DNA of 9,293 nucleotides, from the IMG/VR virus record IMGVR_UViG_2554235177_000006. One strand, written 5' to 3'. A program made the position numbers and the translations under genes. Positions within the stretch are counted from its first letter, which is position 1. Every line of letters begins with the position of its first letter. This DNA comes from a virus (lineage: Duplodnaviria; Heunggongvirae; Uroviricota; Caudoviricetes). Positions 1 to 9,175 of the stretch are shown piece by piece. The notes under the pieces are model-generated. The model had not been told where the DNA came from. It did no database searches and saw nothing but the letters and a program-made list of their open reading frames with translations.

Positions 1-78
1 GGTGAGTTTGTCACTTCATTACAGGCATTGAAAGAGATCGGAATAAAAGCTGGCTTTTCTGCTTTTGCAGAAGAATAA
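1..78 (+). CDS. 3' end of an upstream ORF (partial, product unknown)
   Basis: Frame open from the window edge to TAA at 76-78 (...GEFVTSLQALKEIGIKAGFSAFAEE*). No start visible, identity not determinable. Confidence 0.3.
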   Translation, partial: GEFVTSLQALKEIGIKAGFSAFAEE

Positions 79-144
79 ACTCATCTACAATCTTGCGCGG
101 GGCTGAACTCCCGCTGAGTAACACCGTGCCACCGGAGAAAACCG

Positions 145-423
145 ATGGCACGCAACGCAAAATATTACAATCATGATAATTCGACCGTTCTTGCCCACAC
201 GCACGAGCGGTATTCTCATGCATTTAAGTCAGACTGGTACCAGCATCCCCCATGCACTGAAGAACAGGCCGAGTGGCTAATTCAGTGCTACCGCAGACAC
301 GGATACGAGATTAAGAAAGCCCTCAGCCTCGATTATCGTCACTGGATAATCTCCGTCAGGCTCCCTTACTCCGAACGGCCACCGCGTCCGTCCCGCACAT
401 TCCAGCAACGCATCTGGAGGTAA
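145..423 (+). CDS. Hypothetical small nin-region protein (92 aa)
   Basis: ATG at 145 preceded by GGAG about 8 nt upstream; the stop TAA at 421-423 is 1 nt before the GTG start of the next gene, suggesting translational coupling. Family not recognised. Confidence 0.5.
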   Translation: MARNAKYYNHDNSTVLAHTHERYSHAFKSDWYQHPPCTEEQAEWLIQCYRRHGYEIKKALSLDYRHWIISVRLPYSERPPRPSRTFQQRIWR

Positions 424-424
424 C

Positions 425-1483
425 GTGCGGGTATTACTTCGACCTGTTCTGGTACCGGAACTTGGGCTGGTGGTGCTAAAACCGGGCCGTGAATCCATGC
501 CGGTATTCCACAATACCCGGGTACTGGTGGAGCCGGAACCGAAAAGCATGCGTAATCTGTCGTCCGGGGTCGTTCCTGCCGTTCGCCAGCCGCTGGCGGA
601 GGATAAATCATTACTGCCATTTTTCAGCGACGAACGAGTGATTCGTGCTGCTGGTGGCGCTGGCGCATTGTCTGACTGGTTACTGCGCCATGTTAAATCC
701 TGCCAGTGGCCACACGGCGATTATCACCACAGTGAAACCGTCATTCACCGTTATGGTACCGGCGCAATGGTGTTGTGCTGGCACTGCGACAACCAGCTGC
801 GCGACCAGACCTCCGAATCACTCGGGCAACTTGCTCACCAAAACCTGTCTGCATGGATGATTGACGTCATACGCCATGCAATGAATGGCTCGCAGGAACG
901 GGAATTATCGCTGGCTGAATTATCCTGGTGGGCGGTCCGCAATCAGGTGGCGGACGCGCTACCGGAAGCGGTATTACGTCGTTCGCTGGGGTTGCGTGCG
1001 GAAAAAATCCGCTCAATGTACCGTGAAAGCGACATCGTACCGGGAGAGCAGACCGCCACCAGCATACTGAAACAGCGCACAAAAAATCTTGCGCCGCTGC
1101 CTCACGCCCACCAGCAACAGAACCCACCACAGGAAAAGACGGTGGTCAGCATTGCCGTTGATCCGGAATCTCCGGCTCAGTATCTCCAGCGCCAGAAACC
1201 ACAACGGGAAGAGATGCCTGTATACACGCGCTGGGTAAAAACGCAGAAATGCATGACGTGTGGCAATCAGGCAGATGATCCGCATCACATCATTGGTCAT
1301 GGACTGGGAGGGATGGGAACAAAGGCTGACGATTTGTTTGTTATTCCGCTGTGTCGTAAATGCCATAACGAACTACACGCCGGGGTAAAAGATTTTGAAG
1401 AAAAACACGGTAGTCAGTTGTTGTTGCTGATTCGTTTTTTAATGCACGCGAGAAATTCGGGTGTTCTGAAGTGGAAAGCATAA
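425..1483 (+). CDS. DUF968/YdfU-like prophage protein with C-terminal HNH-type Cys/His motif (putative nuclease)
   Basis: GTG start 5 nt after GGAGG; 352 aa. C-terminus reads CMTCGNQADDPHHIIGHGLGG...LCRKCHNELH, i.e. CxxC...HH...CxxCH, the HNH pattern. Overall resemblance to Rac/Qin YdfU is from memory; position directly upstream of rusA fits the nin region. Confidence 0.65.
   Translation: MRVLLRPVLVPELGLVVLKPGRESMPVFHNTRVLVEPEPKSMRNLSSGVVPAVRQPLAEDKSLLPFFSDERVIRAAGGAGALSDWLLRHVKSCQWPHGDYHHSETVIHRYGTGAMVLCWHCDNQLRDQTSESLGQLAHQNLSAWMIDVIRHAMNGSQERELSLAELSWWAVRNQVADALPEAVLRRSLGLRAEKIRSMYRESDIVPGEQTATSILKQRTKNLAPLPHAHQQQNPPQEKTVVSIAVDPESPAQYLQRQKPQREEMPVYTRWVKTQKCMTCGNQADDPHHIIGHGLGGMGTKADDLFVIPLCRKCHNELHAGVKDFEEKHGSQLLLLIRFLMHARNSGVLKWKA
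466..473 (+). other. Chi octamer GCTGGTGG
   Basis: Exact match read in sequence. Confidence 0.9.
650..657 (+). other. Chi octamer GCTGGTGG
   Basis: Exact match read in sequence. Confidence 0.9.
1056..1063 (-). other. Chi octamer (CCACCAGC on + strand)
   Basis: Exact reverse-complement match. Confidence 0.9.
1108..1115 (-). other. Chi octamer (CCACCAGC on + strand)
   Basis: Exact reverse-complement match. Confidence 0.9.
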
Positions 1484-1852
1484 ATGACCGAACGCATAGA
1501 ATTTGTTTTGCCTTACTCGCCGACGGTGAACACTTACTGGCGACGCCGTGGCAGCACATATTTTGTATCAAAAGCCGGGGAGCGTTATCGCCGGGCAGTG
1601 GCGCTTATTGTTCGCCAGCAGCGACTGAAATTAAGCCTGTCCGGACGGCTGGCAATAAAAATTATTGCAGAGCCACCGGATAAGCGTCGTCGTGACCTGG
1701 ACAATATTCTGAAAGCACCACTGGATGCGCTGACGCACGCGGGGTTGTTAATGGACGATGAGCAGTTTGATGAAATCAATATTGTACGTGGCCAGCCAGT
1801 ATCTGGTGGACGGCTGGAGATAAGAATTACAGAGGTGGGTGTGCATGAATAA
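1484..1852 (+). CDS. rusA: Crossover junction endodeoxyribonuclease RusA (Holliday junction resolvase)
   Basis: 122 aa; shares the RRRDLDN catalytic-region motif and the GGRLE(I/L)xITE(V/M)G C-terminus with E. coli RusA (120 aa). ATG immediately follows the upstream stop (TAAATG). Confidence 0.9.
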   Translation: MTERIEFVLPYSPTVNTYWRRRGSTYFVSKAGERYRRAVALIVRQQRLKLSLSGRLAIKIIAEPPDKRRRDLDNILKAPLDALTHAGLLMDDEQFDEINIVRGQPVSGGRLEIRITEVGVHE

Positions 1853-2534
1853 CCAGTATTTACAGTTTGTTCGTGAGCAACTCATGATTGCCACTGCAGA
1901 TCTCAGTGGGTCGACAAAATGCCAGCTGGAAGCCTGGCAGGAAAATGCCCTGTTCGATACAGGGCGTTACAGACGCAAAAAAATTCGTTACCGCGATGAG
2001 GTAACCGGAAAAATGATCACGCGGGATAATCCCCCGATCCAGGGTAAACAATCACTGGCGAAAGGCTCATCAATTGCGCTGGTCAGTCCTGTTGAGTTTG
2101 CAACATCATCGTGGCGGCGTGCTGTTCTGGAACTGGAAGAACATCAGAAGGCGTGGTTGTTGTGGTGTTATGGCGGAAACATTTGCTGGGAGCATCAGAT
2201 CGCGATAACGCAGTGGGGGTGGAGTGAATTTAAAACTCAGTCCGGCTCCAGAAAAATTGCAGTGAAAACGCTGGAGCGTGTGAAGAAGTTGATCTGGCTG
2301 GCGGCACAGGATGTCAGAGGATGGGTTACCGGGTGTGAGGTCTACCAGAGACAGGAGCTTGCCAGACTGTGTGGAGTTAAGCCTGATAACTGGAGCCATA
2401 ATTATGCGAACTACTGGCGTGAGATGTGCGATATTTTTAAGCGCCTCGATAGAGAATCCTTGATTTGCTCCGTGAAAATAAGAGCGCAACAAAAAGCGAC
2501 CTTTTCACGACGAGATATTGCAAAAGTCAATTAA
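1845..2534 (+). CDS. Putative late-gene antiterminator Q (QuuQ-like family), identity by position
   Basis: 229-aa ORF whose ATG overlaps the rusA stop (ATGAATAA); lies between rusA and a strong intrinsic terminator, upstream of the lysis genes, exactly where Q sits in lambdoid phages. Not lambda-Q-like in sequence (no obvious zinc finger); family assignment unverified. Confidence 0.5.
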   Translation: MNNQYLQFVREQLMIATADLSGSTKCQLEAWQENALFDTGRYRRKKIRYRDEVTGKMITRDNPPIQGKQSLAKGSSIALVSPVEFATSSWRRAVLELEEHQKAWLLWCYGGNICWEHQIAITQWGWSEFKTQSGSRKIAVKTLERVKKLIWLAAQDVRGWVTGCEVYQRQELARLCGVKPDNWSHNYANYWREMCDIFKRLDRESLICSVKIRAQQKATFSRRDIAKVN

Positions 2535-2593
2535 ATCGCGTATGTTTCGTATAAATCTGATATTTTGCCGATTTTGTACGTGATGGCAAAGTA

Positions 2594-2623
2594 AGAAAAA
2601 ACCACCGCCAGGTGGTTTTTTTT
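2594..2623 (+). terminator. Rho-independent terminator (tR'-like) downstream of Q
   Basis: A-run, perfect 7-bp stem AACCACC/GGTGGTT (2600-2606 / 2611-2617) with 4-nt loop, then T8 run. Likely ends the short constitutive late-promoter transcript. Confidence 0.7.
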
Positions 2624-2655
2624 ATGTCCGAAAATCGCGTCAGTACAGTAAACGC

Positions 2656-2663
2656 GCTGGTGG
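2656..2663 (+). other. Chi octamer GCTGGTGG
   Basis: Exact match read in sequence. Confidence 0.9.
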
Positions 2664-2746
2664 TTGCGAATACGGGTCTTTCAGCTTGCCGGCTTTTTCG
2701 ACAAGAGTTATTGGTATGTCACGTTAACCGGAAAAGGGAAAAAGAC

Positions 2747-2944
2747 ATGCTAAAACAGCAGGATATGACAGAAGCCGCCAGAGTGGTGTTTAATGAATTA
2801 AGCGTTACCGACCCGGCGACAGTCAGGGAGATTGCACAGAATACTTACCTTTCACGCGAACGCTGCCAGTTAATACTGACCCAGCTTGTTATGGCGGGTC
2901 TGGCAGACTATCAGTTTGGTTGTTACAGACACCTTCAGTCCTGA
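2747..2944 (+). CDS. Hypothetical small protein (65 aa), possibly helix-turn-helix; alternative start at ATG 2624 would give 106 aa
   Basis: ORF in the Q-S cargo region; ATG 2747 follows a purine-rich AAGGGAAAAAG stretch. Segment TVREIAQNTYLSRERCQLILTQL looks HTH-like by eye. Start ambiguous. Confidence 0.4.
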   Translation: MLKQQDMTEAARVVFNELSVTDPATVREIAQNTYLSRERCQLILTQLVMAGLADYQFGCYRHLQS

Positions 2945-2956
2945 AGGCTTTTTTAT
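2932..2956 (+). terminator. Putative intrinsic terminator after the 2747-2944 ORF
   Basis: 6-bp stem CCTTCA/TGAAGG with 4-nt loop, then CTTTTTTATTT; overlaps the stop codon of the preceding ORF. Confidence 0.5.
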
Positions 2957-2972
2957 TTGTGGTAAATGGGCG

Positions 2973-2980
2973 GCTGGTGG
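2973..2980 (+). other. Chi octamer GCTGGTGG
   Basis: Exact match read in sequence. Confidence 0.9.
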
Positions 2981-3257
2981 GTGTGGTGGTTGTTGCTTTC
3001 CCGTTGCTGAAAAAGAAAACGCCAGACTGTTAGCCGGGTATCAGTTAGCGGGAGAAATTTTTAAATACTTCACAATTCAGGCGGTTGACTGTTGTCTGGT
3101 TTGCGGGGAGTTTGTTAAAAGAAACTGGCATGGTGAATCCCCCTGTGCGGAGGGGCAATCAGCGAGTAGGTATATGGGATAATCGCGGATTCAGGTGCTG
3201 GTACTGAATTCACCGGGAGGCACCCGGCACCATGCAATGGCACATAGCGCCACTCTC

Positions 3258-3294
3258 CAGCCCCTCTCCGGAGGGGCTGTTTATATTGATTTTG
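3258..3294 (+). terminator. Intrinsic terminator (GC-rich hairpin plus T-rich tail)
   Basis: Perfect 9-bp stem CAGCCCCTC/GAGGGGCTG with TCCG loop (3258-3279), then TTTATATTGATTTTG. Confidence 0.6.
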
Positions 3295-3313
3295 TCAGAT
3301 GTGAGTAAACTCC

Positions 3314-3649
3314 TTATGGACTTTGTTGTTTTAGCCCATAAGGACATATTTGCAGAGTGCAACGGTTATTAAAGCATTCATTCAATACGTTATCTGTATT
3401 TGTAGGGCATTCCTGGCTGTTTTTGATTAAATTCCAGAATGTTTTATTGAATGGTACTACGTTGTAAATGGTTACAGGTAGCACTTTGTTATTGAGCATG
3501 ATACCTGTGTGAGTCAGTGTAAATATACTTTCAGGAGGTAAGAAAGCATCCGATTGATACCAGATTATTAATTTTATTTTACTCCATATGACTGAAAAAG
3601 ATATTCCGCATGATGGCTGGATAACTGTATCAATCACAATCCACTTCAT
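3314..3649 (-). CDS. Hypothetical protein (111 aa) in an AT-rich island, opposite to the late operon
   Basis: Clean 336-nt ORF in strongly AT-rich DNA, where stop codons are frequent, so unlikely by chance. AGGAA about 5 nt upstream of the ATG; candidate sigma70 promoter upstream on the minus strand (TTTACA, about 15-16 nt spacer, TATACT). No recognisable family. Confidence 0.4.
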
Positions 3650-3909
3650 TTAGTTTCCTTGTTTATGCCTTGCTGGTGATGTTCTGAAAAGTATAAATGA
3701 TATTTTTGATTGTAAACCATAGAGCAGAATTATTTTTCTGATGTTGTTTATTGTTTATTTAAATGCAGGGTGGTTTATATCTCGTCTTGTAGTTTATCCA
3801 TGCATATCTGCTTGATGATGAGGTTTTTATTTAAGGTATGGTTTTGTGTTTTTTCTGTATTACATGTCAGGTATTTTAAAGAATCATTTTTCAGATGGTG
3901 GAAAGAACC

Positions 3910-4098
3910 ATGGCATTTAAACACTATGATGTTGTCAGGGCGGCGTCGCCGTCAGATCTTGCGGAAAAGCTGACACATAAACTGAAAGAGGGCTGGCAGC
4001 CGTTTGGTAGTCCGGTGGCCATAACCCCTTATACCCTGATGCAGGCGATTGCAGCAGAAGGTGATGTGGTGGTCAGTGGTGCAACTGAGCCGGAGTGA
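3910..4098 (+). CDS. Small prophage protein, DUF1737-like (62 aa)
   Basis: ATG 3910 preceded by GGTGGAAAG; about 60-aa protein (MAFKHYDVVRAASPSDLAEKL...EGWQPFGSPV...) resembling, from memory, the small DUF1737 proteins found between Q and lysis genes in enterobacterial prophages. Confidence 0.55.
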   Translation: MAFKHYDVVRAASPSDLAEKLTHKLKEGWQPFGSPVAITPYTLMQAIAAEGDVVVSGATEPE

Positions 4099-4256
4099 TA
4101 CTACGTCATCGTACTGGCCCGGCATTCCAGGCCATAAAAGACGGTCTGGCAGTGGGACTAAATGCACTGACGCTGACGGATATTACCAAAAATGCAACGT
4201 ATGGCGTTGAGATAGAAAGTCTGGTGCTGGAGATAAATGCACCGGCATCATCATAA
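4095..4256 (+). CDS. Small hypothetical ORF (53 aa) possibly translationally coupled to the upstream gene
   Basis: GTG at 4095 overlaps the upstream TGA (GTGA), with GGAG just upstream; runs to TAA at 4254-4256. Below the ORF-track length cutoff; found by manual translation. Speculative. Confidence 0.3.
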
Positions 4257-4341
4257 AAAGTGAGCCAGTCAAATGGAAGGTATCGTTAAACTCACCGGTA
4301 GTGTCAGTGGGTCGTCTGAGACGCCTGCATGAGTTATCAGA

Positions 4342-4371
4342 GCCATCAGTACTTAACTGGTGGCTTTTTTA
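4342..4371 (+). terminator. Putative intrinsic terminator immediately upstream of the lysis cassette
   Basis: 8-bp stem GCCATCAG/CTGGTGGC (one G-U wobble) with 7-nt loop, then TTTTTTATTGTTG. Would insulate lysis genes from cargo-region transcription unless RNA polymerase is Q-modified. Confidence 0.5.
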
Positions 4372-4405
4372 TTGTTGTCAGCTTCCGGATAACGGGAGAC
4401 GGGGT

Positions 4406-4621
4406 ATGTACCAGATGGAAAAAATCACAACAGGTGTGTCATACACCACGTCAGCGGTGGGAACGGGCTACTGGTTCCTGCAGTTGCTGGACAGGGTTTC
4501 CCCGTCTCAGTGGGCGGCAATAGGCGTGCTGGGGAGTCTGCTGTTTGGGCTGCTGACATATCTGACTAACCTGTATTTCAAAATCAAAGAGGACCGGCGT
4601 AAGGCGGCGCGGGGAGAGTAA
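4406..4621 (+). CDS. S: Class II holin / pinholin, phage 21 S21-like, with dual start motif
   Basis: 71 aa from ATG 4406, with a second in-frame ATG at codon 4 (4415) giving 68 aa, the S21-71/S21-68 arrangement. Core GYWFLQ...[15 protein letters not shown]...[11 protein letters not shown](K/R)[10 protein letters not shown] closely matches S21 as I recall it. Confidence 0.85.
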
Positions 4622-4625
4622 AGTG

Positions 4626-5516
4626 ATGAATAAAAAATATGAACTGGTTGTTAAGGGGATAAATAATTACGGGGATAAGGTTACTGTTACTGTGAAGTCG
4701 GAAGGTGACGGGCAAGCGTCGCTGTTGTTGCCAGATGTGGCGATTAGTCTTGACCGTACTGAAGGTGCCACGCTGGAGTTTTACGAAGCTGAGGCGAAAA
4801 AGCAGGCGAAGCAGTTTTTCATGGATGTTGCTGCCGGGTTATGTGAATGGAACGAACCGTTGCCGGAAAAGCGCCCCGTAATTTTAGAGGCGCAGGATGT
4901 GTTGATAACCTACAAAGGAAAGCTACCGGGAAGAATTACTTGTTCTCTGAAGATGCCGCCGTCAACACTGCGGTCAGAAAAAGATGATGTTGAATCACGT
5001 ATTGAAAAACTGGAGAGCTACGTCGTTGAGCTGAATAAGAAATGGTCGATATTGGTGCCTTCTGGCGATGAAAAGCAGTTTGCTGCGTTTGACGATTATT
5101 GTCGGAAAGTGATGAGCAGAAATCTCGCAGAGTGTTTCAGTATTCATAATGATAATTTCAGTGACCCGGAATGGGAGTGTAACCGGCCATCCTTTGTTGT
5201 ATCCGGTGATGCTGGGAAAATAACCATCTCAGAAAATGGGAAAGTAACACCTCCATCGCACCAGCACAGTGAGGAGCTCATTGAATTTGCCATTGATTAC
5301 CTGAAGAACAATAAAAAGCAGGGGCTGATGAAGCGCGTTGGCCGTTGCATGGGATATCTTCAGGTAGCCGCTGAGATTGAAGCGCTGGCCAGTGGTGCTG
5401 ATAAGGATGCAATTGTGCGGGAGGCTCTTCTTCGTGATTTTAATACTCCACCCTTTAAAAAAGTGCCGGCTTACTGGCTTCATCCGGGGCTGACTTATCT
5501 TAAAGTGCGTATTTAG
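4626..5516 (+). CDS. Hypothetical protein (296 aa) inserted between holin and endolysin; function unknown
   Basis: ATG 4626 lies 4 nt after the holin stop, with GGGGAGAG upstream; long clean ORF ending TAG 5514-5516, 36 nt before the endolysin start. No transmembrane segment or catalytic motif recognised by eye; contains a charged helical stretch (RSEKDDVESRIEKLESYVVELNKKW). Confidence 0.7.
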   Translation: MNKKYELVVKGINNYGDKVTVTVKSEGDGQASLLLPDVAISLDRTEGATLEFYEAEAKKQAKQFFMDVAAGLCEWNEPLPEKRPVILEAQDVLITYKGKLPGRITCSLKMPPSTLRSEKDDVESRIEKLESYVVELNKKWSILVPSGDEKQFAAFDDYCRKVMSRNLAECFSIHNDNFSDPEWECNRPSFVVSGDAGKITISENGKVTPPSHQHSEELIEFAIDYLKNNKKQGLMKRVGRCMGYLQVAAEIEALASGADKDAIVREALLRDFNTPPFKKVPAYWLHPGLTYLKVRI

Positions 5517-5552
5517 TGGGCCAGGGACAGCGGCTGAATATTTAATATATCC

Positions 5553-6086
5553 ATGAACACCAAAATCAAATACGGCCTGTCGGCTGCCGTTCTGGCGCTG
5601 ATTGCCGCTGGTGCGCCTGCGCCTGACATTCTCGACCAGTTTCTGGATGAAAAGGAAGGCAACCACACCACGGCATACCGTGATGGTGCAGGTATCTGGA
5701 CCATCTGCCGTGGTGCCATCATGGTGGATGGCAAACCTGTCGTTCCGGGCATGAAGTTGTCGAAGGAAAAATGCGACCAGGTTAACGCCATTGAGCGTGA
5801 TAAAGCGCTGGCGTGGGTGGAGAAAAACATCAGAGTGCCGCTGACCGAACCCCAGAAAGCGGGGATCGCGTCATTCTGTCCGTACAACATTGGTCCCGGT
5901 AAGTGTTTCCCGTCGACGTTTTACAGACGAATTAATGCTGGTGATCGAAAAGGTGCCTGCGAAGCGATTCGCTGGTGGATTAAGGACGGTGGCAGAGACT
6001 GCCGTATTCGTTCAAACAACTGTTACGGTCAGGTATCCCGTCGTGACCAGGAGAGCGCGCTGGCGTGCTGGGGTATCGACAGATAA
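5553..6086 (+). CDS. R: SAR endolysin (T4-lysozyme-like, GH24; R21-like)
   Basis: N-terminal weakly hydrophobic Gly/Ala-rich segment (YGLSAAVLALIAAGAPA) typical of a signal-anchor-release domain; catalytic E-x8-D-x5-T spacing in EGNHTTAYRDGAGIWT. Confidence 0.9.
   Translation: MNTKIKYGLSAAVLALIAAGAPAPDILDQFLDEKEGNHTTAYRDGAGIWTICRGAIMVDGKPVVPGMKLSKEKCDQVNAIERDKALAWVEKNIRVPLTEPQKAGIASFCPYNIGPGKCFPSTFYRRINAGDRKGACEAIRWWIKDGGRDCRIRSNNCYGQVSRRDQESALACWGIDR
5971..5978 (+). other. Chi octamer GCTGGTGG
   Basis: Exact match read in sequence. Confidence 0.9.
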
Positions 6087-6242
6087 GCAGAATATTTTGC
6101 TGAAAAATGAGGAATGGCCACGCGGGCGGATAACACGAAATCCTGCGAACTGGCGAAACGTAAGTGAATAAAAGTAAAAACCCCGTTTGTTGGCACCAAG
6201 CGAGGTTTTGTGTTTCTGACCTTGAGTAAGGCAAGGGAGAAC

Positions 6243-6425
6243 ATGGCGAAGTGTAAACGAATTCTGTTGAGGTTGACTATGAAAAATGGCCTTGAACTGA
6301 AAGCGCCTGTAACTGATGACATCAGCAGAGCACTGGCTTTTGCCATTAAGTGGGTGGCGGTCGGTGTTGCTGTGTCCCCGATGCTGTATGGGCTGGCAAA
6401 ACTGGTCATTGCGTTGAAATCGTGA
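6243..6425 (+). CDS. Small putative membrane protein (60 aa) between endolysin and Rz
   Basis: ATG 6243 preceded by AAGGGAG; C-terminal hydrophobic stretch [27 protein letters not shown]. The stop is followed directly by the strong RBS of the next small ORF. Confidence 0.35.
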
Positions 6426-6439
6426 AGGGAGGATTAAGC

Positions 6440-6571
6440 ATGTCAGACAAACTCATAACGCTGGCGAAGATCCTCTGTGTAATTGTCGGCATTTCATTTT
6501 CACTAATGCTGGTTGCTCTTTTTCTTTCCATGGCCTGGATGATGTTGTCTTCGTCGGGGTTGCTGGGGTGA
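6440..6571 (+). CDS. Small putative single-pass membrane protein (43 aa) coupled to Rz
   Basis: Strong RBS GGGAGGA 7 nt upstream of ATG 6440; hydrophobic core [26 protein letters not shown]; stop TGA overlaps the GTG start of Rz (GTGA). Confidence 0.45.
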
Positions 6572-7041
6572 ACATAAACCGAATGCTTTCCGCGTTTATC
6601 GTTATTCTGCTGGTGGCCTGTGGTGCGCTGTGGATGGCAACAGACCATTACCGTGATAACGCGATTACCTACAAAGCGCAGCGCGATAACAAAGCCAGTG
6701 AACTGAAGCTGGCGAACGCAACCATTACTGATATGCAGGTGCGCCAGCGCGATGTTGCTGCGCTCGATGCAAAATACTCGAGGGAATTAGCCGATGCGAG
6801 AGCTGAAAATGAAACTCTTCGCGCTGACGTTGCCGCTGGTCGTAAGCGCCTGCGGATCAACGCCACCTGTCCAGGCTCCGTGCGTGAAGCCCCCACCACC
6901 TCCGGCGTGGATAATGCAACCGGCCCCCAACTGGCAGACACCGTTACACGGGATTATTTCACCCTCAGAGAGCGGCTGATGACGATGCACAAGCAACTGG
7001 AAGGGGCACAGGACTATATCCGCACTCAGTGCCTGAAATAA
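6568..7041 (+). CDS. Rz: Rz i-spanin (inner-membrane spanin subunit)
   Basis: Translation closely matches lambda Rz ([14 protein letters not shown]...DMQ(V/M)[12 protein letters not shown]...[10 protein letters not shown](M/I)TM(H/Q)KQLEG). Start either GTG 6568 (coupled) or ATG 6583. Confidence 0.9.
6609..6616 (+). other. Chi octamer GCTGGTGG
   Basis: Exact match read in sequence. Confidence 0.9.
6794..6979 (+). CDS. Rz1: Rz1 o-spanin (outer-membrane lipoprotein) embedded in Rz in the +1 frame
   Basis: 61 aa with lipobox-like LVVSAC and proline-rich [14 protein letters not shown]...WQTPL(H/N)GIISPSE, closely matching lambda Rz1. GAGGGAA upstream of ATG 6794. Confidence 0.85.
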
Positions 7042-7351
7042 GTTTTGTTGATGCGCCGTATCGTCGCTATATTCCCTCATTAACAGAGACCGCAGCCCGA
7101 CAGGGAGACTCCTCTGCGCGAGTGTGCGGGGATAATTAAAAACGATGCACACCGGGTTTTTACCGCGTTAATGATTCGCGGGTTTATCCCGGTGCGATGG
7201 TGGAAGAAACAGGAAGCTGTATTACAGAAAGTGCTACTACTGTATCCCGATGCGATGTATGTAATGTGAGTCAGATAATGGCACAGGATGTGGTGATGTG
7301 GCAGTCTGGAACACAGGATATATTGTCAGAATAAGACCCGTAGGAATAAAA

Positions 7352-7678
7352 ATGAAAAGACGCCTTTTACTACTTTTTCTGTTATCTGTCCTGGCAGTGG
7401 GATGCTCGCAGCAAAAAGCTGATGAGCCCCGGCAATTAGTGACGGTGTATCCACGATATCCGGAATATGCTGCAGCAAATTATATCAAGGGGCTGGTTGA
7501 GGTTAAGTTCGATATTGGTGCTGATGGGACTGTGACACGGATCGTTTTTCTCCGCTCAGAGCCTCATAATTTGTTTCGTGATGAAGTGGTGAAGGCCATG
7601 GCGAAATGGCGATTTGAAAAGAATCGCCCCTGTCAGGGAGTGAAGAGACAATTTATCTTTACGCCGTCACGTCCTTGA
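7352..7678 (+). CDS. Putative lipoprotein with TonB C-terminal domain (108 aa)
   Basis: AGGA 6 nt upstream of ATG; N-terminus MKRRLLLLFLLSVLAVGCSQQ is a signal peptide with a Cys at the likely lipidation site. The rest (GLVEVKFDIGADGTV...LRSEPHNLFRDEVVKAMAKWRFE) matches the TonB_C pattern G.V.VKFD...DG.V...S.P...F..EV..AM..WR.E. Confidence 0.7.
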   Translation: MKRRLLLLFLLSVLAVGCSQQKADEPRQLVTVYPRYPEYAAANYIKGLVEVKFDIGADGTVTRIVFLRSEPHNLFRDEVVKAMAKWRFEKNRPCQGVKRQFIFTPSRP

Positions 7679-7769
7679 TGCTTCCAGGTAGAGAGGGGCT
7701 GGACGCAGGAGAAAAATGAAAGAGCCAGCGGTTATATTTTTGTCATGGCTGACGAGGAATGATGGAAGA

Positions 7770-7794
7770 AGGCGTTGTATGCCACACAACGCCT
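7770..7794. terminator. Putative bidirectional hairpin terminator between convergent genes
   Basis: Perfect 9-bp stem AGGCGTTGT/ACAACGCCT with 7-nt loop, between the + strand TonB-C gene (ends 7678) and the minus-strand ORF (ends 7801); pyrimidine/T-rich flanks on both sides. Confidence 0.45.
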
Positions 7795-7800
7795 CACTGT

Positions 7801-7980
7801 TCATTTCTTCTTTTTCTCTGGTGGAACCCGATGAATAAGAGTTGCACTGGTTTCCGATGAGATGGCGATATACTCGGGCAAAGTATGCTGGCAGTTTTCC
7901 AACTGGTCAAAAATACCTGCTCTCGTCTGTTGCAATGCCTGCAGCATGCGGCGGCAATGCGCCTTGCTTTTACTAACCAT
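7801..7980 (-). CDS. Hypothetical small protein (59 aa); may extend upstream to ATG 8154 (117 aa)
   Basis: Very strong RBS (AGAGGAAGGAAAG) immediately upstream of ATG 7980. The upstream in-frame extension (IRIYLVLHDEFTQRLIEEGK) looks like a ribbon-helix-helix beta strand plus helix, but its ATG at 8154 has no RBS and overlaps the next ORF. Confidence 0.35.
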   Translation of the reverse strand: MVSKSKAHCRRMLQALQQTRAGIFDQLENCQHTLPEYIAISSETSATLIHRVPPEKKKK

Positions 7981-8041
7981 CTTTCCTTCCTCTATCAGTC
8001 GCTGCGTGAACTCATCATGTAATACCAGGTAAATGCGGATG

Positions 8042-8293
8042 TTATCGGTTTTGGCTACGCAGCATAGTACAAAACGGACAGGTGCATCCCGGGACGGGGG
8101 AGGCGTCACATGTCCCTGTGATGGTTGTTCCGGGTAATGCACTGTGTGGGGCATAAAAATGTCCGATAATTTTACTTTCTACCGCAGTTAGTTGATTCGT
8201 TGGTCCTGGTAGCACATTGGGCGAGGATTTAAATGCCAGGCAACTGAAGGATGATGTTGCAAGGGAGATAGCGAGAATATTTCTGATTTTCAT
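8042..8293 (-). CDS. Hypothetical small secreted protein (83 aa) with N-terminal signal peptide
   Basis: ATG 8293 with AGAGG about 9 nt upstream; N-terminus MKIRNILAISLATSSFSCLA is signal-peptide-like; candidate sigma70 promoter (TTACAG, 18-nt spacer, TATTAT) between it and cos. Its 3' end overlaps the long form of the neighbouring ORF in another frame. Confidence 0.35.
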   Translation of the reverse strand: MKIRNILAISLATSSFSCLAFKSSPNVLPGPTNQLTAVESKIIGHFYAPHSALPGTTITGTCDASPVPGCTCPFCTMLRSQNR

Positions 8294-8441
8294 TTGATGA
8301 TGCCTCTGTGTGAAATGACGGTAAACGACGCACTTGTGCCGGCACATAATAGCAAGCACCATAATAGATCAGATTCGATTCTTGCTGTAAGTGATAATTA
8401 TTCTCGTTTTCGGGTCCTTTCCGTCGATCCAACAGGTTACG

Positions 8442-8453
8442 GGGCGGCGACCT
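8442..8453 (+). other. cosN: lambda-type 12-nt cohesive-end sequence GGGCGGCGACCT
   Basis: Exact GGGCGGCGACCT followed by CGCGGGTTTTCGCTATTTATGAAAATTTTCCGG, as at the lambda left end; preceded by lambda-right-end-like CGGGTCCTTTCCG..GATCC.ACAGGTTACG (the cosQ side). Confidence 0.8.
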
Positions 8454-8490
8454 CGCGGGTTTTCGCTATTTATGAAAATTTTCCGGGGAA

Positions 8491-8629: not shown

Positions 8630-9175
8630 ATGAAGGTTAATAAAAAGAAACTTGCCGAAATTTTCAACGTGGATCCGCGAACGATTGAACGCTGGCAGTC
8701 TCAGGGACTCCCTTGCGTCTCCGGAGGTGGTAAGGGCGTTGAATCTGTATTTGATACCGCCATGGCAATTCAGTGGTATGCGCAGAGGGAAGCTGATATC
8801 GAAAATGAAAAACTCCGTAAAGAGGTTGAGGATTACAGGGCTGCCAGTGAGGCAGATCTCCAGCCTGGGACTATTGAGTACGAACGCCATCGACTTACGC
8901 GTGCGCAGGCCGACGCACAGGAGCTGAAAAATGCCAGAGACTCCGCTGAAGTGGTGGAAACCGCATTCTGTACTTTCGTGCTGTCACGGATCGCAGGTGA
9001 AATTGCCAGTATTCTTGACGGGATCCCTCTCTCGGTACAGCGGCGTTTTCCGGAACTGGAAAACCGACATGTTGATTTCCTGAAACGGGATATCATCAAA
9101 GCCATGAACAAAGCAGCCGCGCTGGATGAACTGATACCGGGGTTGCTGAGTGAATATATCGAACAGTCAGATTGA
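8630..9175 (+). CDS. nu1: Terminase small subunit Nu1
   Basis: 181 aa; C-terminal two-thirds (ADIENEKLR...[59 protein letters not shown]...) near-identical to lambda Nu1 as I recall it; N-terminal DNA-binding part diverged. Confidence 0.95.

Follow-up and report, generated by a model that had tools for sequence, protein, structure and literature searches.

Clustered Chi sites in the right arm of a lambdoid Escherichia coli prophage without recognisable Gam or Rec genes

We analyzed a 9,293-nt stretch of DNA (hereafter the window, meaning the whole stretch) from the virus record IMGVR_UViG_2554235177_000006, which is the nin–Q–lysis–cos end, or right arm, of a 49 kb lambdoid Escherichia coli prophage. 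The exact Chi octamer (5'-GCTGGTGG-3') occurs eight times in the window, six times on the + strand and twice on the – strand, and all eight sites lie where an earlier note made from the letters alone (the original prediction) had placed them, on the strands that it gave. Chi is in specific excess, the sites are clustered toward the right end in a defined position and orientation relative to cos, and no recognisable Gam or Rec genes accompany them. We consider it probable from this combination that the Chi cluster lets a phage lacking Gam and Red use the host RecBCD and RecA from the cos-cut right end. The original prediction had likewise read the element as adapted to RecBCD, and the excess, the right-end clustering and the failure to find Gam appear to support that reading. 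The phenomenon itself is already published, for prophages in 2013 (PMC3784561) and for isolated phages, with experiments, in 2025 (PMC12315714).

We compared the number of Chi sites with several expectations. A uniform model gives 0.28 sites in the window, as the original prediction had correctly calculated, and dinucleotide-preserving shuffles gave 0.41 sites on average and at most 3, with none of 200 reaching 8. When synonymous codons were shuffled gene by gene, so that proteins and codon usage stayed as they are (5.67 kb of coding sequence), 0.81 sites were expected against the six coding sites observed, and 0 of 3000 shuffles reached six; such codon-preserving controls, which the original prediction had put forward as a check, do not explain the Chi count. 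By the same shuffle, the gene of the DUF968/HNH family alone contains four sites where 0.46 were expected (P = 3e-4). Among the 168 octamers of the same composition (G5 C1 T2), Chi ranks first in the window (8 occurrences, mean 0.49, runner-up 3); it is also the joint most frequent octamer in the window, and the next, TGCTGGTG, shares seven overlapping bases with it. The ratio of exact sites to one-mismatch variants was 8:21 in the window, compared with 0:64 in the 26 kb structural arm of the prophage (Fisher P = 4e-5) and 0:71 in lambda, which, as the original prediction had stated, has no Chi. A sixth-order Markov expectation computed from the 7-mers of Chi (8.7 against 8 observed) was rejected as uninformative and near-circular, since the Chi sites themselves supply 8 of the 12-13 copies of each 7-mer.

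The orientation of the sites can be read from cos. The exact 12-nt cohesive end of lambda (GGGCGGCGACCT) is present on the + strand at positions 8442-8453 (cosN), and the spacing of 188 bp from cosN to the Nu1 gene is that of lambda. Since cosN is on the + strand, this strand corresponds to the lambda top strand, the mature right end would lie at about 8441, and the + strand Chi sites are top-strand sites, active for RecBCD that enters at the right end (PMC12315714); the orientation claimed in the original prediction is borne out in this way. The six exact copies would thus each be approached from their 3' side and are predicted to be functional, at distances of 1.8, 2.5, 5.5, 5.8, 7.8 and 8.0 kb from the right end. 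The first to be met from that end, 1.8 kb away, lies at 6609..6616 (+) in the Rz gene (6583-7041; codons L-L-V-A). It is followed by the site at 5971..5978 (+) in the lysozyme gene (5553-6086), where R-W-W is encoded by CGC TGG TGG; this octamer is intact in 13/13 diverged haplotypes, and the coding of Trp-Trp forces the sequence. Two sites are non-coding, one at 2973..2980 (+) in the gap between Q and holin, as annotated in RefSeq, and one at 2656..2663 (+) in the Q/holin interval, about 40 bp 3' of a terminator-like hairpin that follows Q (2596-2621). The four remaining sites, half of the total, fall in the single DUF968/HNH-domain gene (YdfU family; 425-1483, +, 1,059 bp), so that six of the eight are coding. 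Two of these are on the top strand, at 650..657 in a conserved AAGG motif (GCT GGT GG; A-G-G) and at 466..473 in codons for G-L-V-V, the latter in active orientation 7.97 kb from the right end. The other two are on the – strand, at 1056..1063 (GCC ACC AGC, A-T-S) and 1108..1115 (A-H-Q-Q), and are intact in 90% and 97% of diverged haplotypes, respectively; the site at 1056 is inactive for right-end entry.

We next compared the window with the host and with the rest of the prophage. The flanking host chromosome (97 kb) contains 22 Chi sites (0.226/kb), of which 18 are on the + strand of the window. At this rate the window would hold 2.1 sites (Poisson P = 1.5e-3 for at least 8), and the excess over the host is about 4-fold, which is not extreme. 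The whole prophage of 49,153 bp carries ten sites, 8 on the top and 2 on the bottom strand, and its unusual feature is their clustering, not its overall density: eight of the ten lie within 6.15 kb (scan-statistic P ~1e-4). On the cos-to-cos map the ten sites fall at 0.54, 0.575 and 0.838-0.963, with 8/10 in 0.84-0.96, a distribution that departs from uniformity both for all sites (Kolmogorov–Smirnov (KS) test, P = 1.8e-4) and for the top-strand sites (P = 0.0037). The two sites outside the cluster are in int and in an exonuclease gene, respectively, and the structural arm, which extends over 26 kb and ends with the tail fibre genes (Nu1 onward; L001 28442-49293 and L002 1-5360), contains no exact Chi.

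To look for recombination functions and RecBCD inhibitors, we searched Pfam and PHROG with the proteins of the early-left operon and ran six-frame tblastn over the whole prophage with lambda Gam, Bet and Exo, phi80 GamL, RecT and Exo, P22 Abc1, Abc2, Erf and Arf, and Mu Gam; as positive controls, the queries recovered their own genes in lambda. No homologue of Gam, GamL, Abc2, Mu Gam, Bet, RecT, Erf or Exo was found in the prophage by Pfam, PHROG or the six-frame search, so that the check for Gam suggested in the original prediction came out in favour of its reading. In the six-frame search no query had a match better than E = 0.08, and lambda Gam, phi80 GamL, P22 Abc1 and Abc2, and Mu Gam had none below E = 0.6. 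The Pfam scan of the early-left proteins likewise contained no family of single-stranded DNA-binding protein (SSB). The operon consists of int, xis, an 818-aa protein, DUF1482, DicB, a Rha/Ash regulator, a 124-aa protein without known function, DUF1391 and the repressor. The 818-aa protein, encoded beside xis (L001 6971-9427, – strand), is a fusion in which the N-terminal, non-catalytic part of RecE (PF06630) is followed by a DnaQ-like 3'-5' exonuclease domain (PF16473) on the C-terminal side. DnaQ-type genes beside int are not counted as Rec-module genes by Zheng, Casjens, Davidson, Amundsen and Smith 2025 (PMC12315714); were this exonuclease counted as one, the prophage would be placed with the 'nuclease only' phages (Tritos type) of their class B, and this type is Chi-rich as well.

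These properties place the prophage among systems that have been described before. Bobay, Touchon and Rocha 2013 (PLoS Genet; PMC3784561) examined 275 lambdoid phages and prophages (237 of them prophages) of E. coli and Salmonella, and found that those without a recombinase or RecBCD inhibitor carry about 0.2 Chi/kb, a density equal to that of the host and over-represented for their composition. Chi in such genomes is concentrated in the stretch that runs from the replication genes to cos and precedes the structural genes, and phages and prophages do not differ in Chi (PMC3784561). The prophage studied here resembles them in having no recognisable recombinase, Gam or Abc2, about 0.2 Chi/kb and its Chi sites in the same region, and it shows no difference in kind.

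Zheng et al. 2025 (PMC12315714) extended this picture to isolated phages. Of 68 phages without a Rec module, 62 were Chi-rich and 48 had the sites clustered at the right end. Phage LLS, which was isolated in that study and has no Rec module, grows less well on recB and recC hosts, with no such reduction on recD hosts, and host Rec dependence was demonstrated for LLS and three other isolates (PMC12315714). In the mechanism given there, terminase occludes the left end, and RecBCD therefore loads at the right end and approaches top-strand Chi on its 3' side; right-end entry and this direction of approach are also what the original prediction had put forward. Class A of that study, with LLS as its prototype, comprises lambdoids with no anti-RecBCD protein, with no strand-annealing protein, SSB or Rec nuclease, and with at least 4 (typically at least 8) top-strand Chi sites, few on the bottom strand, and clustering at the right end (KS P < 0.1). 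Judged from its sequence, the prophage would belong to class A, apart from the one ambiguity of whether the exonuclease beside xis is a Rec-module gene.

LLS is the closest parallel. We confirmed 23 Chi sites in its sequence (20 top, 3 bottom), clustered at the right end. LLS shares with the prophage a lambda-like gene order, a lambda-type cos, the lack of a recognisable strand-annealing or anti-RecBCD protein, and Chi sites that are mostly on the top strand and near the right end. In LLS, as in P1, Chi is the most frequent octamer and TGCTGGTG the next (PMC12315714), the same two that lead in the window. LLS also encodes a homologue of the DUF968/HNH protein upstream of Q (gp47, 54% identical) and, next to xis, a DnaQ-like protein that matches the C-terminal part of the 818-aa protein at 57% identity; this domain stands alone in LLS, whereas in the prophage it is fused to the RecE N-terminal region. 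The two differ further in the number of Chi sites (23 against 10, the latter 8 top and 2 bottom), in the left part of the genome (six Chi in the left 17 kb of LLS, none in the structural arm of the prophage) and in that LLS was isolated as a virus, whereas the prophage is known as a prophage only.

Two other systems can be compared through the account given of them by Zheng et al. (PMC12315714). In the classical genetics of lambda red gam chi+ (Lam 1974, Faulds 1979 and Kobayashi 1982, as cited there), a correctly oriented Chi rescues growth via RecBCD and RecA when Gam and Red are lacking. The prophage would share this logic; it has an identical cosN and is subject to the same rule for the orientation of cos to Chi. 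The lambda strains are laboratory mutants with a single Chi, whereas the prophage is natural and has six sites in active orientation in the 8 kb next to the right end. Phage P1 is, according to the same account, also dense in Chi, with Chi as its most frequent octamer, and it depends on host RecBCD and RecA, a dependence that is predicted for the prophage. P1 is, however, unrelated, packages by headful with terminal redundancy, and is described as using Chi for circularisation by recombination between its terminal repeats.

We propose the following course of events for the prophage. Terminase would cut cos and stay on the left end, leaving the right end at about 8441 open. RecBCD would enter there and move leftward, unwinding and degrading the DNA, until it meets the six top-strand Chi sites from their 3' side, 1.8 to 8.0 kb into the arm. 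Recognition of Chi would switch RecBCD from a degrading enzyme to a loader of RecA, and the RecA-loaded end could then invade a sister genome and give rise to the concatemers, or to the recombination-primed replication, needed for cos packaging. Resulting Holliday junctions might be resolved by RusA, which is annotated within the Chi cluster (1484-1852, +). A single Chi is recognised in about one-third of RecBCD encounters; sites in series may compensate for this incomplete recognition, and at that rate six of them would stop about 90% of the enzymes. Entry of RecBCD at the right cos end had been proposed in the original prediction for a packaged linear genome; the right end appears correct, and it would be freed when terminase cuts cos, not in a packaged genome.

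We further examined whether related right arms have the same property. A related Nu1 served as anchor in 37 dereplicated IMG/VR loci, from which we took 10 kb on its upstream side (right arm) and 10 kb on its downstream side (head genes). The right arms contain 132 Chi sites in 366 kb (0.36/kb; 82 top, 50 bottom), and Chi again ranks first of the 168 octamers of the same composition (132 against a mean of 13). The head modules contain 2 sites in 257 kb (0.008/kb), where octamers of the same composition average 11. At the same potC site, a sister prophage whose head is of HK97 type carries 0.77 Chi/kb in its right arm and 0.11/kb in its structural genes. With 64 one-mismatch variants in the structural arm and 71 in lambda and no exact Chi in either, lambda-type head modules look as though they avoid Chi.

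The number of Chi sites per related right arm is bimodal, being either 0-1 or 5-11, and Nu1 genes that are 99-100% identical in amino acid sequence occur behind both kinds, which indicates that modules are shuffled at cos. The window itself contains such a junction. The commonest form of the prophage is identical to the window through position 8487 and then continues with another lambda-like Nu1 and head module, in which there is no Chi; the junction at 8487/8488 is sharp and is found 35 bp beyond cosN, on its right side. Over 100 E. coli genomes match positions 1-8487 at ~100% identity and then switch head module, and the version of the head module found in the window is present in three records only.

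Several observations weigh against the reading that the cluster serves the phage at its cos-cut end. The small early-left proteins of unknown function, such as those of L001 11289-11663, DUF1482 and DUF1391, may include a RecBCD inhibitor too divergent or too novel for sequence searches to recognise. The lysis region contains pseudogenes (DUF1737, YdfR), and the prophage may not be fully functional. One 9.3 kb stretch of the host carries 6 Chi sites, and the Chi density of the whole prophage (0.20/kb) equals that of the host. The two minus-strand sites at 1056 and 1108 face the wrong way for entry at the right end. The 6:2 split between the strands is not significant (two-sided binomial P = 0.29) and is indistinguishable from the leading-strand bias of the host (18/22, 82%), and in the related right arms only 62% of the sites are on the top strand. 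Five of the six coding sites lie in peptide motifs that readily encode Chi (LV, AGG, WW, ATS). The strand argument of the original prediction is weakened accordingly: the 6:2 split is real, but it carries no weight, since it is not significant and the top strand of the prophage is the leading strand, as is indicated by 18 of the 22 host-flank sites lying on it, and since the relatives show only 82:50. Equal local density in the host together with the same strand bias had been named there as the outcome that would speak against adaptation; the bias is the same, but the local density of the host is about 4-fold lower.

Some of these points would be expected if Chi were kept in the prophage state by the same selection as in the host, for the repair of broken replication forks and not for the lytic cycle. 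The leading-strand bias and the host-like overall density, the latter also reported in 2013 (PMC3784561), fit such selection, as does the finding that 5233 of 5426 E. coli genomes contain parts of the module, probably in many cases within cryptic prophages. Because every copy of the identical module that we examined is at potC in one orientation, the orientation of Chi does not separate a phage function from a host function. However, the cluster has 1.3 Chi/kb, about 6x the host mean, while the 26 kb of structural genes have had the same residence time and contain no Chi, which is true of two head modules. Moreover, LLS, isolated as a virus, has the same right-end cluster of top-strand sites, and no difference between phages and prophages was seen in the earlier survey (PMC3784561). 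We therefore regard host-type selection as an unlikely source of the cluster.

The junction near cosN raises another explanation, namely that the right arm was shaped in some other Rec-less lineage and acquired by recombination, and that its Chi sites are now neutral. At least two different Chi-free head modules occur next to this right arm, identical Nu1 and head modules stand behind both Chi-free and Chi-rich right arms, and individual Chi sites turn over, all of which would accord with such a history; shuffling of this kind was also proposed by Zheng et al. 2025 (PMC12315714). However, no Gam or Rec module was found in the prophage, so that conditions favouring Chi apply now. This explanation concerns history and is compatible with a present function, and that the sites are a neutral legacy seems to us quite unlikely.

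A third explanation is that Leu-Val, Ala-Gly-Gly, Trp-Trp and Ala-Thr-Ser motifs in preferred codons generate Chi as a by-product of coding or of local words, without selection on the octamer. Besides the coding position of most sites and the Markov expectation described above, the recurrence of Chi at RVLVE, AAGG, CWW and ATS in DUF968 homologues of 42-55% identity and the lack of conservation above background speak for it; but shuffles that preserve amino acids and codon usage fall far short of the six coding sites, seven deep DUF968 lineages contain 17 Chi sites against 5.5 expected, two sites in the window are non-coding, Chi is first of 168 words of its composition, the Markov test is near-circular, with its 7-mer copies drawn mostly from Chi sites, and lambda and LLS, with near-identical amino acid and codon usage, have 0 and 23 sites, which makes this explanation very unlikely.

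To examine whether individual sites are maintained, we compared the intactness of each Chi octamer with that of all neighbouring octamers in up to 70 diverged haplotypes. The top-strand sites were at percentiles 0.34, 0.62, 0.59, 0.16 and 0.79; the Trp-Trp site at 5971 was at 0.97, where the sequence is forced by the protein. Top-strand Chi sites are thus not kept intact more than their neighbours, and purifying selection on single sites was rejected. The two bottom-strand sites were at percentiles 0.89 and 0.97. These findings also count against use of the cluster by RecBCD from the right end, a model that does not predict that the two bottom-strand sites should be the best conserved. Since individual sites are not conserved above their neighbours, the case for selection rests on the number and position of Chi.

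The DUF968/HNH gene illustrates this turnover. Among 97 unique genes of this family none is without Chi. Top-strand sites occur at the alternative gene positions 42, 99, 168 and 226, with a mean of 1.70 per gene against 0.43 expected, while the bottom-strand pair (gene positions 632 and 684) is nearly invariant (1.88 per gene against 0.11 expected). Chi sites therefore turn over while their number is roughly maintained, which is weaker evidence than conservation of the sites would be; that Chi sites 'come and go' was anticipated by Zheng et al. 2025 (PMC12315714).

All top-strand sites in the gene lie 5' of the bottom-strand pair, so that the sites of the two strands point toward each other over a core of about 400 bp. 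In homologues with 42-55% identity from Enterobacter, Kosakonia, Phytobacter and Symbiopectobacterium, the peptide motifs that carry Chi are again RVLVE, AAGG and CWW for the top strand and ATS (encoded by GCC ACC AGC) for the bottom strand, and in the seven deep lineages the excess is also seen on the bottom strand (6 against 0.8 expected). Lineages share only 50-64% DNA identity around the bottom-strand site and GCC-ACC-AGC persists, so that this segment has not been recently exchanged. The recurrence of facing sites in distant homologues, mostly through motifs that readily encode Chi, is at most suggestive; preferred codons and the non-independence of lineages could explain the bottom-strand sites. 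LLS and several other DUF968 lineages lack bottom-strand sites within the gene. The gene might in principle act as a two-sided Chi trap, a hotspot of RecBCD-dependent module exchange, but we find this highly improbable. If it did, a double-strand break in the core would have an active Chi no more than 450 bp away in either direction; the break could come from the HNH nuclease itself or occur while modules are exchanged, and the hotspot would drive exchange of the Q-lysis module among lambdoid prophages or repair a self-inflicted break. Three distant hits (L188-L190) were frameshifted pseudogenes and were dropped from the comparison of facing sites. Contigs with DUF968 prophage genes of enterobacterial type carried the metagenome-assembled genome labels Veillonella parvula, Geobacteraceae and Caulobacter segnis (L175, L177 and L183) and are probably mis-binned.

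In its biology the result goes no further than the studies of 2013 (PMC3784561) and 2025 (PMC12315714), and its value is mainly one of annotation. The principle, that a phage either brings a recombination system of its own together with an inhibitor of RecBCD and avoids Chi, or has neither and loads its exposed end with Chi, is experimentally backed and could be rediscovered from raw sequence alone. If the cluster is used by RecBCD from the right end as proposed, the potC prophage, which is widespread in E. coli, would depend on host RecBCD and RecA for lytic growth, and the nin–Q–lysis arm would be a recombination-prone segment, which would fit the module junction 35 bp from cosN.

The remaining features of the window follow a lambdoid plan. 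According to the RefSeq annotation, the prophage comprises int/xis, the early-left operon, cI/cro, replication genes, nin, Q, lysis genes, cos, Nu1/A, head and tail, and the window is 100% identical to E. coli chromosomes. It begins with the 3' end of rem (1-78) and a hypothetical gene (145-423), which are followed by the DUF968/HNH gene, RusA and Q (1845-2534). The holin gene is at 4406-4621, and Nu1, encoding the small terminase subunit, at 8630-9175 (+), where the Chi-free structural arm begins. A scan for tRNA genes found none, and in a promoter scan of 2400-4500 promoter-like sites were no commoner than in shuffles, so the late promoter was not placed. The late region contains two genes that appear to be cargo, namely the anti-adapter gene iraM on the opposite strand in the Q/holin interval (3314-3649, –) and, between Rz and cos, a gene for a small protein of 108 aa with a TonB C-terminal domain (TonB_C; 7352-7678, +).

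Between Q and iraM, Rfam gave a full-length match to the small RNA STnc100 (RF02076; 3099-3288, +) with 132 bits against a gathering score of 47; it contains a terminator-like hairpin at 3258-3279 and overlaps a RefSeq pseudo-coding sequence on the opposite strand. Downstream of holin, positions 4623-5516 (+) form an open frame of 297 aa that is a DUF1327/YdfR remnant: residues 1-100 match DUF1327 (YdfR), and the remaining ~200 residues have no Pfam match. At this locus RefSeq has a truncated YdfR pseudogene at 4626-4961 only and leaves 4962-5552 empty.

The 49.15 kb prophage adjoins potC, which flanks it on the left (potC/int junction, L001 5386-5553). On the right it is bounded by a truncated ompW, followed by yciE (L002 5360-5545) and the trp operon. 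The potC and ompW/yciE/trp loci are about 130 kb apart in K-12, and these odd boundaries suggest either recombination between two prophages, with deletion or rearrangement, or an assembly artefact.

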